From a virus (taxonomy: Duplodnaviria > Heunggongvirae > Uroviricota > Caudoviricetes), in the IMG/VR virus record IMGVR_UViG_3300029566_000323: 29,363 bases of DNA; one strand, written 5' to 3'. Positions 8,844-17,095 of this stretch are shown here, piece by piece. Position 1 is the stretch's first letter, and each line of letters starts with the position of its first letter. The translations under genes were made by a program, and so were the position numbers. Under the pieces are notes generated by a model. It was not told where the DNA came from and ran no database searches. It worked only from the letters and a program-made list of their open reading frames with translations.

Positions 8844-8890
8844 NNNNNNNNNNNNNNNNNNNNNNNNNNNNNNNNNNNNNNNNNNNNNNN
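8844..8890. other. Run of 47 N (assembly gap or masked bases)
   Basis: Literal n characters in the sequence; interrupts the hok-type toxin locus. Confidence 1.
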
Positions 8891-9027
8891 TGTTAATCGC
8901 CCTGATCGTCATCTGTTTAACCGTCATAGTGACGGCACTGGTAACGAGGAAAGACCTCTGCGAGGTACGAATCCGAACCGGCCAGACGGAGGTCGCTGTC
9001 TTCACAGCTTACGAACCTGAGGAGTAA
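8891..9027 (+). CDS. hokD: Hok-family type I toxin (HokD/RelF-like), 5' end hidden in the N run
   Basis: Translation after the gap reads LIALIVICLTVIVTALVTRKDLCEVRIRTGQTEVAVFTAYEPEE*, matching remembered HokD/RelF; upstream leader resembles hok mRNA 5' end; overlapping mok-like frame (8817-9020) also open. Confidence 0.8.
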
Positions 9028-11269: not shown

Positions 11270-11951
11270 CCAGTATTTACAGTTTGTTCGTGAGCAACTC
11301 ATGATTGCCACTGCAGATCTCAGTGGGTCGACAAAATGCCAGCTGGAAGCCTGGCAGGAAAATGCCCTGTTCGATACAGGGCGTTACAGACGCAAAAAAA
11401 TTCGTTACCGCGATGAGGTAACCGGAAAAATGATCACGCGGGATAATCCCCCGATCCAGGGTAAACAATCACTGGCGAAAGGCTCATCAATTGCGCTGGT
11501 CAGTCCTGTTGAGTTTGCAACATCATCGTGGCGGCGTGCTGTTCTGGAACTGGAAGAACATCAGAAGGCGTGGTTGTTGTGGTGTTATGGCGGAAACATT
11601 TGCTGGGAGCATCAGATCGCGATAACGCAGTGGGGGTGGAGTGAATTTAAAACTCAGTCCGGCTCCAGAAAAATTGCAGTGAAAACGCTGGAGCGTGTGA
11701 AGAAGTTGATCTGGCTGGCGGCACAGGATGTCAGAGGATGGGTTACCGGGTGTGAGGTCTACCAGAGACAGGAGCTTGCCAGACTGTGTGGAGTTAAGCC
11801 TGATAACTGGAGCCATAATTATGCGAACTACTGGCGTGAGATGTGCGATATTTTTAAGCGCCTCGATAGAGAATCCTTGATTTGCTCCGTGAAAATAAGA
11901 GCGCAACAAAAAGCGACCTTTTCACGACGAGATATTGCAAAAGTCAATTAA
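11262..11951 (+). CDS. Late-gene antitermination protein Q-like
   Basis: Position immediately after rusA and immediately before a short promoter-terminator unit; ~230 aa as expected for Q-family antiterminators; sequence identity to a specific Q type not verified. Confidence 0.7.
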   Translation: MNNQYLQFVREQLMIATADLSGSTKCQLEAWQENALFDTGRYRRKKIRYRDEVTGKMITRDNPPIQGKQSLAKGSSIALVSPVEFATSSWRRAVLELEEHQKAWLLWCYGGNICWEHQIAITQWGWSEFKTQSGSRKIAVKTLERVKKLIWLAAQDVRGWVTGCEVYQRQELARLCGVKPDNWSHNYANYWREMCDIFKRLDRESLICSVKIRAQQKATFSRRDIAKVN

Positions 11952-11959
11952 ATCGCGTA

Positions 11960-12012
11960 TGTTTCGTATAAATCTGATATTTTGCCGATTTTGTACGTGA
12001 TGGCAAAGTAAG
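11960..12012 (+). promoter_or_regulatory. Candidate late promoter PR' / Q-utilisation region
   Basis: Short intergenic region after Q with TATAAAT at 11967-11973 and a terminator ~45 nt downstream; exact -35/-10 not secure. Confidence 0.3.
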
Positions 12013-12040
12013 AAAAAACCACCGCCAGGTGGTTTTTTTT
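12013..12040 (+). terminator. tR'-like rho-independent terminator downstream of Q
   Basis: AAAAAACCACC-GCCA-GGTGGTTTTTTTT: perfect stem flanked by A-run and U-run (potentially bidirectional). Confidence 0.7.
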
Positions 12041-12163
12041 ATGTCCGAAAATCGCGTCAGTACAGTAAACGCGCTGGTGGTTGCGAATACGGGTCTTTCA
12101 GCTTGCCGGCTTTTTCGACAAGAGTTATTGGTATGTCACGTTAACCGGAAAAGGGAAAAAGAC

Positions 12164-12361
12164 ATGCTAAAACAGCAGGATATGACAGAAGCCGCCAGAG
12201 TGGTGTTTAATGAATTAAGCGTTACCGACCCGGCGACAGTCAGGGAGATTGCACAGAATACTTACCTTTCACGCGAACGCTGCCAGTTAATACTGACCCA
12301 GCTTGTTATGGCGGGTCTGGCAGACTATCAGTTTGGTTGTTACAGACACCTTCAGTCCTGA
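12164..12361 (+). CDS. Small protein (65 aa), possible winged-helix regulator
   Basis: AAGGGAAAAAG RBS before ATG 12164; product MLKQQDMTEAARVVFNELSVTDPATVREIAQNTYLSRERCQLILTQLVMAGLADYQF resembles small wHTH regulators (FaeA/PapI-like pattern); tentative. Confidence 0.45.
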   Translation: MLKQQDMTEAARVVFNELSVTDPATVREIAQNTYLSRERCQLILTQLVMAGLADYQFGCYRHLQS

Positions 12362-12674
12362 AGGCTTTTTTATTTGTGGTAAATGGGCGGCTGGTGGGTG
12401 TGGTGGTTGTTGCTTTCCCGTTGCTGAAAAAGAAAACGCCAGACTGTTAGCCGGGTATCAGTTAGCGGGAGAAATTTTTAAATACTTCACAATTCAGGCG
12501 GTTGACTGTTGTCTGGTTTGCGGGGAGTTTGTTAAAAGAAACTGGCATGGTGAATCCCCCTGTGCGGAGGGGCAATCAGCGAGTAGGTATATGGGATAAT
12601 CGCGGATTCAGGTGCTGGTACTGAATTCACCGGGAGGCACCCGGCACCATGCAATGGCACATAGCGCCACTCTC

Positions 12675-12705
12675 CAGCCCCTCTCCGGAGGGGCTGTTTA
12701 TATTG
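12675..12705 (+). terminator. Terminator-like hairpin closing the structured noncoding stretch
   Basis: CAGCCCC-TCTCCGGA-GGGGCTG followed by TTTATATTGATTTT. Confidence 0.5.
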
Positions 12706-12730
12706 ATTTTGTCAGATGTGAGTAAACTCC

Positions 12731-13066
12731 TTATGGACTTTGTTGTTTTAGCCCATAAGGACATATTTGCAGAGTGCAACGGTTATTAAAGCATTCATTC
12801 AATACGTTATCTGTATTTGTAGGGCATTCCTGGCTGTTTTTGATTAAATTCCAGAATGTTTTATTGAATGGTACTACGTTGTAAATGGTTACAGGTAGCA
12901 CTTTGTTATTGAGCATGATACCTGTGTGAGTCAGTGTAAATATACTTTCAGGAGGTAAGAAAGCATCCGATTGATACCAGATTATTAATTTTATTTTACT
13001 CCATATGACTGAAAAAGATATTCCGCATGATGGCTGGATAACTGTATCAATCACAATCCACTTCAT
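12731..13066 (-). CDS. Hypothetical moron protein (111 aa) on the strand opposite to late transcription
   Basis: ORF with AAGGAAA RBS 5 nt upstream of ATG (minus strand); markedly AT-rich gene and upstream region (13067-13320); cysteine-containing product with no recognised family. Confidence 0.55.
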
Positions 13067-13326
13067 TTAGTTTCCTTGTTTATGCCTTGCTGGTGATGTT
13101 CTGAAAAGTATAAATGATATTTTTGATTGTAAACCATAGAGCAGAATTATTTTTCTGATGTTGTTTATTGTTTATTTAAATGCAGGGTGGTTTATATCTC
13201 GTCTTGTAGTTTATCCATGCATATCTGCTTGATGATGAGGTTTTTATTTAAGGTATGGTTTTGTGTTTTTTCTGTATTACATGTCAGGTATTTTAAAGAA
13301 TCATTTTTCAGATGGTGGAAAGAACC

Positions 13327-13515
13327 ATGGCATTTAAACACTATGATGTTGTCAGGGCGGCGTCGCCGTCAGATCTTGCGGAAAAGCTGACACATAAACT
13401 GAAAGAGGGCTGGCAGCCGTTTGGTAGTCCGGTGGCCATAACCCCTTATACCCTGATGCAGGCGATTGCAGCAGAAGGTGATGTGGTGGTCAGTGGTGCA
13501 ACTGAGCCGGAGTGA
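13327..13515 (+). CDS. Small protein (62 aa), DUF1737-like
   Basis: GGTGGAAAG RBS before ATG 13327; product [62 protein letters not shown] resembles small proteins found upstream of lysis genes in lambdoid phages; family call tentative. Confidence 0.6.
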   Translation: MAFKHYDVVRAASPSDLAEKLTHKLKEGWQPFGSPVAITPYTLMQAIAAEGDVVVSGATEPE

Positions 13516-13673
13516 TACTACGTCATCGTACTGGCCCGGCATTCCAGGCCATAAAAGACGGTCTGGCAGTGGGACTAAATGCACTGACGCTGACGGATAT
13601 TACCAAAAATGCAACGTATGGCGTTGAGATAGAAAGTCTGGTGCTGGAGATAAATGCACCGGCATCATCATAA
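13512..13673 (+). CDS. Candidate small ORF (53 codons), translationally coupled
   Basis: GTG overlapping the upstream TGA (GTGA); product (M)[52 protein letters not shown] is protein-like; below the 60-aa ORF-track cutoff. Confidence 0.3.
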
Positions 13674-13758
13674 AAAGTGAGCCAGTCAAATGGAAGGTAT
13701 CGTTAAACTCACCGGTAGTGTCAGTGGGTCGTCTGAGACGCCTGCATGAGTTATCAGA

Positions 13759-13790
13759 GCCATCAGTACTTAACTGGTGGCTTTTTTATT
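13759..13790 (+). terminator. Rho-independent terminator upstream of the holin gene
   Basis: GCCATCAG-TACTTAA-CTGGTGGC (one G-U pair) followed by TTTTTTATT. Confidence 0.55.
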
Positions 13791-13822
13791 GTTGTCAGCT
13801 TCCGGATAACGGGAGACGGGGT

Positions 13823-14038
13823 ATGTACCAGATGGAAAAAATCACAACAGGTGTGTCATACACCACGTCAGCGGTGGGAACGGGCTACTGGTTCCTGCAG
13901 TTGCTGGACAGGGTTTCCCCGTCTCAGTGGGCGGCAATAGGCGTGCTGGGGAGTCTGCTGTTTGGGCTGCTGACATATCTGACTAACCTGTATTTCAAAA
14001 TCAAAGAGGACCGGCGTAAGGCGGCGCGGGGAGAGTAA
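13823..14038 (+). CDS. S: Class II holin, S21-type pinholin with dual start (Met1/Met4)
   Basis: Product [71 protein letters not shown] closely matches remembered phage 21 S21 / EssD pinholin; two in-frame ATGs 9 nt apart. Confidence 0.9.
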
Positions 14039-14042
14039 AGTG

Positions 14043-14933
14043 ATGAATAAAAAATATGAACTGGTTGTTAAGGGGATAAATAATTACGGGGATAAGGTTA
14101 CTGTTACTGTGAAGTCGGAAGGTGACGGGCAAGCGTCGCTGTTGTTGCCAGATGTGGCGATTAGTCTTGACCGTACTGAAGGTGCCACGCTGGAGTTTTA
14201 CGAAGCTGAGGCGAAAAAGCAGGCGAAGCAGTTTTTCATGGATGTTGCTGCCGGGTTATGTGAATGGAACGAACCGTTGCCGGAAAAGCGCCCCGTAATT
14301 TTAGAGGCGCAGGATGTGTTGATAACCTACAAAGGAAAGCTACCGGGAAGAATTACTTGTTCTCTGAAGATGCCGCCGTCAACACTGCGGTCAGAAAAAG
14401 ATGATGTTGAATCACGTATTGAAAAACTGGAGAGCTACGTCGTTGAGCTGAATAAGAAATGGTCGATATTGGTGCCTTCTGGCGATGAAAAGCAGTTTGC
14501 TGCGTTTGACGATTATTGTCGGAAAGTGATGAGCAGAAATCTCGCAGAGTGTTTCAGTATTCATAATGATAATTTCAGTGACCCGGAATGGGAGTGTAAC
14601 CGGCCATCCTTTGTTGTATCCGGTGATGCTGGGAAAATAACCATCTCAGAAAATGGGAAAGTAACACCTCCATCGCACCAGCACAGTGAGGAGCTCATTG
14701 AATTTGCCATTGATTACCTGAAGAACAATAAAAAGCAGGGGCTGATGAAGCGCGTTGGCCGTTGCATGGGATATCTTCAGGTAGCCGCTGAGATTGAAGC
14801 GCTGGCCAGTGGTGCTGATAAGGATGCAATTGTGCGGGAGGCTCTTCTTCGTGATTTTAATACTCCACCCTTTAAAAAAGGGCCGGCTTACTGGCTTCAT
14901 CCGGGGCTGACTTATCTTAAAGTGCGTATTTAG
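14043..14933 (+). CDS. Hypothetical protein (296 aa) inserted between holin and endolysin
   Basis: Intact ORF with GGGAGAG RBS; no signal peptide, no TM segment, no recognised catalytic motif; located where lysis cassettes normally have S directly followed by R. Confidence 0.75.
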   Translation: MNKKYELVVKGINNYGDKVTVTVKSEGDGQASLLLPDVAISLDRTEGATLEFYEAEAKKQAKQFFMDVAAGLCEWNEPLPEKRPVILEAQDVLITYKGKLPGRITCSLKMPPSTLRSEKDDVESRIEKLESYVVELNKKWSILVPSGDEKQFAAFDDYCRKVMSRNLAECFSIHNDNFSDPEWECNRPSFVVSGDAGKITISENGKVTPPSHQHSEELIEFAIDYLKNNKKQGLMKRVGRCMGYLQVAAEIEALASGADKDAIVREALLRDFNTPPFKKGPAYWLHPGLTYLKVRI

Positions 14934-14969
14934 TGGGCCAGGGACAGCGGCTGAATATTTAATATATCC

Positions 14970-15503
14970 ATGAACACCAAAATCAAATACGGCCTGTCGG
15001 CTGCCGTTCTGGCGCTGATTGCCGCTGGTGCGCCTGCGCCTGACATTCTCGACCAGTTTCTGGATGAAAAGGAAGGCAACCACACCACGGCATACCGTGA
15101 TGGTGCAGGTATCTGGACCATCTGCCGTGGTGCCATCATGGTGGATGGCAAACCTGTCGTTCCGGGCATGAAGTTGTCGAAGGAAAAATGCGACCAGGTT
15201 AACGCCATTGAGCGTGATAAAGCGCTGGCGTGGGTGGAGAAAAACATCAGAGTGCCGCTGACCGAACCCCAGAAAGCGGGGATCGCGTCATTCTGTCCGT
15301 ACAACATTGGTCCCGGTAAGTGTTTCCCGTCGACGTTTTACAGACGAATTAATGCTGGTGATCGAAAAGGTGCCTGCGAAGCGATTCGCTGGTGGATTAA
15401 GGACGGTGGCAGAGACTGCCGTATTCGTTCAAACAACTGTTACGGTCAGGTATCCCGTCGTGACCAGGAGAGCGCGCTGGCGTGCTGGGGTATCGACAGA
15501 TAA
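14970..15503 (+). CDS. R: SAR endolysin (phage lysozyme, R21-like)
   Basis: N-terminal Gly/Ala-rich weakly hydrophobic SAR segment KYGLSAAVLALIAAGAPAP followed by lysozyme core EGNHTTAYRDGAGIWTICRG…; aligns with remembered R21/RrrD. Confidence 0.9.
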   Translation: MNTKIKYGLSAAVLALIAAGAPAPDILDQFLDEKEGNHTTAYRDGAGIWTICRGAIMVDGKPVVPGMKLSKEKCDQVNAIERDKALAWVEKNIRVPLTEPQKAGIASFCPYNIGPGKCFPSTFYRRINAGDRKGACEAIRWWIKDGGRDCRIRSNNCYGQVSRRDQESALACWGIDR

Positions 15504-15659
15504 GCAGAATATTTTGCTGAAAAATGAGGAATGGCCACGCGGGCGGATAACACGAAATCCTGCGAACTGGCGAAACGTAAGTGAATAAAAGTAAAAACCC
15601 CGTTTGTTGGCACCAAGCGAGGTTTTGTGTTTCTGACCTTGAGTAAGGCAAGGGAGAAC

Positions 15660-15842
15660 ATGGCGAAGTGTAAACGAATTCTGTTGAGGTTGACTATGAA
15701 AAATGGCCTTGAACTGAAAGCGCCTGTAACTGATGACATCAGCAGAGCACTGGCTTTTGCCATTAAGTGGGTGGCGGTCGGTGTTGCTGTGTCCCCGATG
15801 CTGTATGGGCTGGCAAAACTGGTCATTGCGTTGAAATCGTGA
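15660..15842 (+). CDS. Small protein (60 aa) with C-terminal TM helix, between endolysin and Rz
   Basis: AAGGGAG RBS before ATG 15660 (alternative ATG 15696 with GAGG); C-terminal hydrophobic [27 protein letters not shown]. Confidence 0.45.
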
Positions 15843-15856
15843 AGGGAGGATTAAGC

Positions 15857-15988
15857 ATGTCAGACAAACTCATAACGCTGGCGAAGATCCTCTGTGTAAT
15901 TGTCGGCATTTCATTTTCACTAATGCTGGTTGCTCTTTTTCTTTCCATGGCCTGGATGATGTTGTCTTCGTCGGGGTTGCTGGGGTGA
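15857..15988 (+). CDS. Small membrane protein (43 aa)
   Basis: GGGAGG RBS 6 nt before ATG 15857; product [43 protein letters not shown] is almost entirely one or two TM helices; stop overlaps Rz GTG start. Confidence 0.45.
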
Positions 15989-16458
15989 ACATAAACCGAA
16001 TGCTTTCCGCGTTTATCGTTATTCTGCTGGTGGCCTGTGGTGCGCTGTGGATGGCAACAGACCATTACCGTGATAACGCGATTACCTACAAAGCGCAGCG
16101 CGATAACAAAGCCAGTGAACTGAAGCTGGCGAACGCAACCATTACTGATATGCAGGTGCGCCAGCGCGATGTTGCTGCGCTCGATGCAAAATACTCGAGG
16201 GAATTAGCCGATGCGAGAGCTGAAAATGAAACTCTTCGCGCTGACGTTGCCGCTGGTCGTAAGCGCCTGCGGATCAACGCCACCTGTCCAGGCTCCGTGC
16301 GTGAAGCCCCCACCACCTCCGGCGTGGATAATGCAACCGGCCCCCAACTGGCAGACACCGTTACACGGGATTATTTCACCCTCAGAGAGCGGCTGATGAC
16401 GATGCACAAGCAACTGGAAGGGGCACAGGACTATATCCGCACTCAGTGCCTGAAATAA
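15985..16458 (+). CDS. Rz: i-spanin Rz
   Basis: N-terminal TM anchor then …[69 protein letters not shown]…[23 protein letters not shown], near-identical in pattern to lambda Rz. Confidence 0.9.
16211..16396 (+). CDS. Rz1: o-spanin Rz1 (lipoprotein) embedded in the +1 frame of Rz
   Basis: Product [61 protein letters not shown] with lipobox VVSAC and proline-rich core, matching lambda Rz1; entirely nested within Rz. Confidence 0.85.
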
Positions 16459-16768
16459 GTTTTGTTGATGCGCCGTATCGTCGCTATATTCCCTCATTAA
16501 CAGAGACCGCAGCCCGACAGGGAGACTCCTCTGCGCGAGTGTGCGGGGATAATTAAAAACGATGCACACCGGGTTTTTACCGCGTTAATGATTCGCGGGT
16601 TTATCCCGGTGCGATGGTGGAAGAAACAGGAAGCTGTATTACAGAAAGTGCTACTACTGTATCCCGATGCGATGTATGTAATGTGAGTCAGATAATGGCA
16701 CAGGATGTGGTGATGTGGCAGTCTGGAACACAGGATATATTGTCAGAATAAGACCCGTAGGAATAAAA

Positions 16769-17095
16769 ATGAAAAGACGCCTTTTACTACTTTTTCTGTT
16801 ATCTGTCCTGGCAGTGGGATGCTCGCAGCAAAAAGCTGATGAGCCCCGGCAATTAGTGACGGTGTATCCACGATATCCGGAATATGCTGCAGCAAATTAT
16901 ATCAAGGGGCTGGTTGAGGTTAAGTTCGATATTGGTGCTGATGGGACTGTGACACGGATCGTTTTTCTCCGCTCAGAGCCTCATAATTTGTTTCGTGATG
17001 AAGTGGTGAAGGCCATGGCGAAATGGCGATTTGAAAAGAATCGCCCCTGTCAGGGAGTGAAGAGACAATTTATCTTTACGCCGTCACGTCCTTGA
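16769..17095 (+). CDS. Lipoprotein with TonB C-terminal-like domain (moron)
   Basis: MKRRLLLLFLLSVLAVGC lipoprotein signal with lipobox; mature part YPRYPEYAAANYIKGLVEVKFDIGADGTVTRIVFLRSEPHNLFRDEVVKAMAKWRFE follows the TonB_C pattern. Confidence 0.7.
   Translation: MKRRLLLLFLLSVLAVGCSQQKADEPRQLVTVYPRYPEYAAANYIKGLVEVKFDIGADGTVTRIVFLRSEPHNLFRDEVVKAMAKWRFEKNRPCQGVKRQFIFTPSRP

Follow-up and report, generated by a model that had tools for sequence, protein, structure and literature searches.

A long-form YdfR/DUF1327-family gene between the holin and lysozyme genes of an Escherichia coli lambdoid prophage

Gene, family and distribution

The window analysed in this study is the whole 29,363-nucleotide stretch of the IMG/VR virus record IMGVR_UViG_3300029566_000323, an Escherichia coli lambdoid prophage whose positions 13700-15600 are 100% identical to many complete genomes. 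The gene of interest lies in its lysis region, between the pinholin-type holin gene S and the lysozyme gene R, and encodes a 33-kDa protein of 296 amino acids (aa).

14043-14933, + strand: target gene, 296-aa long-form YdfR-family protein, ATG start, stop codon at 14931-14933 (from the list of open reading frames, ORFs)
14030-14035, + strand: Shine-Dalgarno-like GGAGAG, seen in the sequence itself inside S at its 3' end, which serves any gene next after S

The gene product was regarded in an earlier note as uncharacterised and without an assignable motif; it is not an orphan, and the statement about the motif is incorrect. The protein is almost certainly the full-length form of the YdfR/DUF1327 family. 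Lambdoid prophages of Escherichia, Shigella, and Salmonella carry its gene as an accessory component of the late operon, and gene, family, and position had all been catalogued before. Residues 1-100 match the Pfam family DUF1327 (PF07041, YdfR family) with a score of 137.9 bits, the cut-off being 25 (E=1.3e-40, positions 1-88 of the 93 in the profile), and the entire protein is aligned end to end with phrog_1085 (residues 1-296 on profile 296/296, E=7.6e-190), which is devoid of an annotated function. The exact 296-aa sequence is present on at least 1,000 contigs, where it is named YdfR family protein, DUF1327 domain-containing protein, or hypothetical protein; no match was obtained for it in NCBIfam.

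At least 80% of the S-ORF-R stretch was found in one place in 549 of the 5,426 complete E. coli genomes, with some match being observed in 4,334. The scan of the single protein against one genome per species produced one locus, and the profile search of 1.84 billion representatives yielded 38 matches, all of them from Escherichia, Shigella, or Salmonella. A second homology search revealed a diverse clade of Salmonella enterica proteins, 230-340 aa long, which are all annotated as hypothetical and have no Pfam match.

The K-12 member of the family, YdfR of the Qin cryptic prophage (b1555, P76160), shares DUF1327 with the target protein (47% identity and 67% positives over residues 1-74, E=6e-21). 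Its gene occupies the same slot, after an S21-type holin and before a lysozyme, in the order essQ-4 nt-ydfR-rrrQ. However, K-12 YdfR is 103 aa long and consists of the N domain only, whereas the 296-aa target continues into a helical hairpin and a conserved C module, the latter without a Pfam model. Similarly, ORF47 of BP-4795, an example of the Shiga toxin (Stx) phages with a 114-aa YdfR, is found in the same arrangement, S-ORF47-R, and has an N domain 85% identical to that of the target, but it ends at residue 114 and lacks the C module. The target thus exceeds the single-domain size of approximately 100-115 aa, extending for about 180 residues past the DUF1327 profile, and the long form is still named YdfR family by NCBI.

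The coding status of the long frame is supported by its start signal, its conservation, and the pattern of substitutions. The ATG is located 7 nt behind GGAGAG and 4 nt behind the stop codon of S, with a GTG at 14040 one codon upstream. No hydrophobic segment is present in the protein, the maximal 19-residue Kyte-Doolittle hydropathy being 0.75. Hence the earlier description of an intact and well-initiated ORF between S and R, lacking a transmembrane segment, was accurate, as were its coordinates. The Nei-Gojobori ratio of nonsynonymous to synonymous substitution rates (dN/dS) equals 0.25 for the C module (aa 186-296, 50 pairs), compared with 1.37 and 1.39 in the two off-frames; the value for the N-terminal third is 0.45, with some N-domain pairs being near 1. 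The frame is intact, from DUF1327 through the end of the C module, in 69 of the 74 assessable related viral loci, which include variants of 296, 268, and 329/330 aa. In the remaining five loci it is broken by frameshifts or insertions, one of them IS1-like. The low in-frame dN/dS relative to the off-frames and the intact frame in these 69 loci reject a chance ORF: the ORF at 14043-14933 is real, intact, and coding, and its integrity is maintained in relatives, contrary to the finding that the earlier note had named as a refutation. In one related viral contig (L083, 3720-4223, - strand), a YdfR-like gene is split within the C module by an insertion with an ORF resembling an IS1-type transposase.

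Three-part architecture

The protein consists of an N domain, a helical hairpin, and a C module with a tail. The three parts emerge from an alignment of relatives, and the secondary structure given below follows an AlphaFold2 run with a cross-genus alignment, whose predicted local distance difference test scores are abbreviated as pLDDT.

14043-14270, + strand: N domain (aa 1-76), DUF1327 core, three strands and then a long helix, acidic with an isoelectric point (pI) of 4.8, pLDDT 73-91, dN/dS 0.45
14271-14387, + strand: extended segment (aa 77-115), pLDDT 23-41, conserved among E. coli forms; the end of the DUF1327 profile falls here
14388-14555, + strand: helical hairpin/coiled coil (aa 116-171, EKDDVESRIEKLESYVVELNKK...), pLDDT ~60-67, followed by a variable, indel-rich middle to about aa 189
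14610-14858, + strand: C module core (aa 190-272), three strands and three helices, pLDDT 75-93, no Pfam family
14859-14930, + strand: C-terminal tail (aa 273-296, NTPPFKK.P..W..PG..YLK.RI), pLDDT <50, predicted unstructured on its own

The C part, comprising the core and the tail (aa 186-296), is basic, with a pI of 9.3. Near-invariant residues across Escherichia and Salmonella are found both in the C module (H214, K236, G239, R240, M242, G243, Q246, and F272) and in the tail (P276, K278, W284, P287, G288, Y291, L292, and R295). As the tail residues are conserved and yet have a pLDDT below 50, the tail is probably engaged in binding a partner. The Salmonella clade is 28-33% identical to the target and is likewise built from an N domain, a coil, and a C module; in the C module the identity is about 35%, and approximately 23 positions are nearly invariant. 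Nothing was found for the C module in Pfam, NCBIfam, or PADLOC, and the profile search with a cross-genus C-module alignment retrieved no new genera and no informative fusions. The C module is a real, selected domain that has no family model.

Since the three-part plan is common to the E. coli forms and the diverse Salmonella clade, the long protein probably represents the conserved, older architecture, and the short YdfR proteins, including that of K-12, are most simply regarded as truncated derivatives.

The modules are linked in evolution and are also exchanged. The identities of the N and C parts vary independently, with N 99% and C 82% in one locus and N 65% and C 88% in another, which argues for recombinational shuffling of modules. 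In the 296-aa variant P0017, a visibly more K-12-like N domain is joined to the same C module as in the target. Each module is also found alone, the stand-alone C-module genes having their own starts. In other E. coli prophages, including an Stx phage, the two modules are split and arranged in the reverse order: S, a gene for a 213-aa coil and C-module protein, a 75-aa DUF1327 gene, and R. The DUF1327 gene has its own ribosome-binding site, and its 75-aa product is 38% identical to target residues 3-72. That the modules are joined in one order and separate in the opposite order constitutes a Rosetta-stone argument for their working together. An internal duplication of two alpha/beta units was also considered and rejected (hhalign probability 0.15%).

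The slot between S and R

The target gene is followed and preceded by lysis genes on the same strand.

13823-14038, + strand: S, S21-type class II holin of the pinholin type, 71 aa (PF04971 Phage_holin_2_1, 7.2e-33; phrog_9876/phrog_20, holin; named class II holin family protein by the genome pipeline PGAP)
14970-15503, + strand: R, lysozyme, 177 aa, with an N terminus apparently of the signal-arrest-release (SAR) type (PF00959, 2.4e-24); its start is displaced by 36 nt from the target gene and lacks an obvious Shine-Dalgarno sequence
15985-16458, + strand: Rz, i-spanin (PF03245, 2e-47)
16211-16396: Rz1, embedded in Rz, lipobox LVVSAC (ORF list; the related locus L004 has a 61-aa Rz1 call, PF06085, in the corresponding position)

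The N terminus of R, MNTKIKYGLSAAVLALIAAGAP, looks to be of the SAR type from its sequence and from the features of SAR endolysins. The GC content at third codon positions is 0.47 in the target gene versus 0.68 in S, 0.60 in R, and 0.59 in Rz, a compositional deviation of the kind expected for a moron. Simple consensus scans of 11900-16600 detected no + strand site resembling a promoter between Q and Rz, nor did they show a convincing terminator 3' of the target ORF; they thus gave no sign of the promoter and terminator of its own that a moron would have. The lack of such a promoter-like site is consistent with the late, Q-dependent co-expression with the lysis genes proposed in the earlier note. 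Judging from this layout, the target gene would be translated from the late, Q-dependent transcript via the Shine-Dalgarno sequence embedded in S.

The slot is polymorphic. In phages whose S and R are approximately 90-95% identical to those of the window, it is either empty, with R following S after 4 nt, as in Min27 and many Stx2a phages, or carries an insert. In the survey of such phage records, 39 covered the whole query, and the slot was empty in 29 of them and occupied in 10, a count that joins pieces up to 875 nt apart and thus underestimates long inserts like the target gene. The direct succession of S and R, taken in the earlier note as the rule for phage 21-type cassettes, therefore applies to some phages and fails in others. 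The possible insertion hotspot with variable cargo, raised as a question in the earlier note, is likewise supported only in its first half: the slot is polymorphic and its gene is accessory, but its occupants are not unrelated, since only forms of the YdfR/DUF1327 family, plus small antisense ORFs or an insertion sequence element, were seen. The search for signatures of mobile elements detected no direct or inverted repeats flanking the insert, and the Rfam search detected no regulatory RNA inside the slot, the only match, STnc100, being located upstream.

The junction formed by GGGGAGAGTAA, 3-4 nt, and ATG recurs whichever gene comes next after S; that gene is R in Min27, ydfR in both K-12 and BP-4795, and a C-module gene in L004. 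In the occupied alleles examined, R is preceded by the AT-rich sequence ...AATATCC or ...ATATCT, with no obvious Shine-Dalgarno sequence. The first residues of R were also observed to vary with the state of the slot, being MNTKIKYG after the insert (window 14970-14994) and MSRKLRYG directly behind S (L097, 1721-1745); this comparison covers few alleles, with a single one (Min27) for the empty state. The difference in R starts between the two states may alter the level of R translation.

In Salmonella, the homologs are encoded downstream of Q and immediately upstream of the holin gene; the holin can belong to another family, and S and R overlap. Thus what is conserved is the association of the gene with the lysis region and the beginning of the late operon, and not with the S-R junction as such.

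In many relatives, a small convergent ORF of 86-105 aa on the - strand was observed directly behind the YdfR-like gene (L055, 3817-4131; L050, 4000-4314; L089, 4808-5125; L092, 4986-5303; L004, 4902-5189; L094, 4881-5141; and L002, 3371-3631). In the window itself it is absent, and only 36 nt separate 14933 and 14970. The members of one family of these ORFs, phrog_1853, are 44-56% identical between the E. coli and Salmonella loci, and the gene pair is therefore conserved across the two genera. At other loci the ORF belongs to the unrelated groups phrog_10490 or phrog_2572, and none of the three has an assigned function.

Several other features of the window surround the lysis genes. Between Q and the holin gene, the small RNA STnc100 (RF02076) gives a full-length match at 12516-12705 on the + strand, with 132 bits against a gathering score of 47, and a terminator-like hairpin is located at its end (12675-12696). 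A 111-aa ORF at 12731-13066 on the - strand, named anti-adapter protein IraM by PGAP, is situated between Q and the lysis genes, where Stx phages have stx and nanS-p. It is followed at 13327-13512 (+ strand) by a truncated DUF1737 remnant; Stx phages have a NanS-p-type esterase gene in front of S, and the remnant represents its N-terminal part. Just 5' of S (13756-13784, + strand), a hairpin of 12 bp with a T run behind it resembles a terminator, through which Q-modified polymerase would presumably read. Downstream of Rz, a TonB-family protein is encoded at 16769-17095 (+ strand), where lambda has bor. The type I toxin gene hokD is found with rem at approximately 8872-9027, and a gene for a YdaT-family toxin adjoins cro/cI (2147-2698); the names of these last genes were taken from the PGAP annotation of an identical genome.

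Possible function and comparison with known systems

Searches for function were negative or uninformative. All nine PHROG matches of the protein are of unknown function, and none of the PHROG or Pfam matches falls into a lysis category. Sequence-profile searches of PDB reached a best E of 0.1, and Foldseek searches of both models against PDB a best E of 0.39 and 0.49, so that no enzymatic or toxin fold was detected. Neither in profile nor in structure searches was a confident match to a known structural or lysis-accessory family obtained, which the earlier note had named as a refutation. No functional literature on essQ and rrrQ was found, and the claim that ydfR affects envelope integrity was set aside, since the main text of the screen cited for it does not mention ydfR.

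The only experimental lead for the family concerns RNase E. K-12 YdfR was recovered in a two-hybrid screen and is positive against Rne 1-597; purification of Strep-tagged YdfR also brings down Rne 1-598, and the surface involved was assigned to YdfR residues 1-72 (Göpel et al., RNA Biol 2026, PMC13232886). Nucleic acid resistant to DNase co-purifies with YdfR as well, and YdfR was placed in group II of the binders of the RNase E N-terminal domain, along with SlyX, YegJ, and ThrB (PMC13232886). The N domain of the target is homologous to the mapped interaction region, with the 47% identity over residues 1-74 given above.

The reading we tentatively prefer, while granting it clearly less than an even chance, is that the target protein is an adaptor adjusting RNA turnover. 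A soluble cytoplasmic protein would be made late from the Q-dependent transcript; through its N domain it would attach to RNA and/or to the N-terminal, catalytic half of the RNase E of the host, by analogy with what was reported for the 103-aa K-12 YdfR; and the C module together with the tail would engage a second partner. The adaptor would thereby adjust RNA turnover in the last phase of lytic growth, and would be neither a part of the lysis machinery nor a defence effector. Four points weigh against this reading. The link to RNase E comes from one paper and from a short homolog 47% identical to the target. Overexpression of K-12 YdfR changed few transcripts and left growth unimpaired (PMC13232886). 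Many functional phages that are nearly identical in other respects lack the gene, which is therefore dispensable. Finally, its persistent place beside the lysis genes in two genera fits a role related to lysis equally well.

Such a role is the best-surviving alternative, although in our estimate it is unlikely: the protein would be a cytoplasmic accessory that tunes the onset of lysis by modulating either the holin, in the manner of T4 RIII and holin T, or how the SAR endolysin accumulates. The gene is always located beside the lysis genes and on their strand, in two genera and with two holin families, being inserted between S and R in E. coli and placed just upstream of the holin gene in Salmonella. 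It would be expressed along with these genes and, in the window, its translation is coupled to that of S by the Shine-Dalgarno sequence that S contains. The adjacency is nevertheless weak evidence, because the stretch immediately behind Q generally accommodates accessory genes (stx, nanS-p, DUF826, and DUF1378). In addition, near-identical S and R work without the target gene in 933W-like phages, S21-type holins have their own antiholin start, as known for S of phage 21, the protein has no lysis-category PHROG match, and the one experimental lead points to RNase E. The earlier suggestion of a lysis-timing regulator thus gained no support.

Cargo serving defence, superinfection exclusion, or anti-defence, which the earlier note had also put forward, appears less probable still. 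The gene does behave as cargo, being accessory, mosaic, present or absent between close phages, and unlike its neighbours in composition. Its N domain evolves relatively fast, as seen from the dN/dS values given above, and the small convergent ORFs (phrog_1853 and others) in many relatives resemble the inhibitor of an effector-inhibitor pair. However, the only hit in PADLOC-DB v2, PbeC, is at the level of chance (E=0.018, 11 bits, a helical stretch of 60 residues), there is no sign of an enzymatic or toxin fold, and K-12 YdfR is not toxic when overexpressed. Moreover, with no promoter of its own found, the protein would be made only late in the lytic cycle of the phage itself, and therefore too late to exclude incoming phages from a lysogen. 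A defence or abortive-infection effector is accordingly unsupported.

It is improbable that the insert acts mainly in cis, by capturing the strong ribosome-binding site embedded in S and leaving R with a weak AT-rich start, so that the endolysin is lowered or delayed and the protein matters little. The alleles do differ in this way: in the empty ones R starts 4 nt behind S on GGAGAG, and in the occupied ones examined it has no Shine-Dalgarno sequence and another N terminus. On the other hand, the dN/dS of 0.25 speaks for purifying selection on the protein sequence, its architecture is retained across genera, and the Salmonella gene, lying upstream of the holin gene, cannot space S from R.

The last alternative, a decaying gene with about 112 codons left of ydfR and a chance open frame behind them, is almost certainly wrong: PGAP does call codons 1-112 only in the 100% identical genome NZ_CP030768 (window 14043-14378; L001 14344-14679), as a pseudogene, 'YdfR family protein, missing C-terminus', with no coding sequence for the other 184 codons, but other records annotate all 296 aa, stand-alone C-module genes have their own starts, the C module is conserved in Salmonella and has a dN/dS of 0.25 against about 1.4 in the off-frames, and 69 of the 74 loci are intact. 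Since the C module is under purifying selection and the long form is conserved, the pseudogene call is an artefact, effectively refuted.

A more specific form of the RNase E adaptor reading can be drawn up, and we regard it as speculative and rather unlikely in its entirety. In this form, long YdfR would be a late RNase E adaptor of temperate phages, with DUF1327 placed on the catalytic half, the C module and the tail recruiting a specific RNA or protein, RNA decay being reprogrammed minutes before lysis, and the whole being restrained in many relatives by the small protein encoded on the opposite strand. If it were true, it would define a new class of phage-host RNA-decay interface, present in approximately 10% of E. 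coli genomes and many Stx phages. The RNase E lead by itself, if true, could affect the stability of late transcripts in Stx phages, and so possibly the output and release of the toxin.

To a large extent the finding is an ordinary one: both the gene and its place had been recorded before, and its counterpart in K-12 was named decades ago. It concerns a late gene that is very frequent in prophages of E. coli and Salmonella; about one-tenth of complete E. coli genomes and many Stx phages have it. What is new is that the long three-part architecture is the conserved one, the studied short form of K-12 being probably a truncation; that the C module is an unmodelled selected domain, at times annotated away as a pseudogene by genome pipelines; that the modules occur fused and split; that an antisense partner ORF is conserved in many relatives; and that there is a testable link to RNase E.

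Among known systems, T4 RIII and P1 LydB are cytoplasmic antiholins or lysis accessory proteins, with T4 RIII acting on the holin T. Like the target, they are small soluble proteins whose genes lie in or next to a lysis cassette and are co-expressed with that of the holin; unlike them, the target has no lysis-category PHROG match and is dispensable in close relatives. T4 Srd and T7 gp0.7 are phage-encoded modulators of RNase E, and Srd contacts its catalytic N-terminal half, as the target would if the K-12 result transfers. On the same condition, the target would resemble the phage phiKZ modulator Dip (PMC4980113) in contacting host RNase E during infection. In the PDB searches, no similarity of sequence or fold to the target was found for Dip, Srd, or gp0.7, and these three are early genes of virulent phages, whereas the target is a late gene of a temperate phage. 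The two-module logic is alike, by analogy only, in the RNase E adaptors of the RapZ type (PMC7430671; PMC13232886), in which one part is placed on the N-terminal domain of Rne and the other binds something else. Although there is no homology between the target and RapZ, RNA co-purifies with K-12 YdfR in much the same way as with RapZ.

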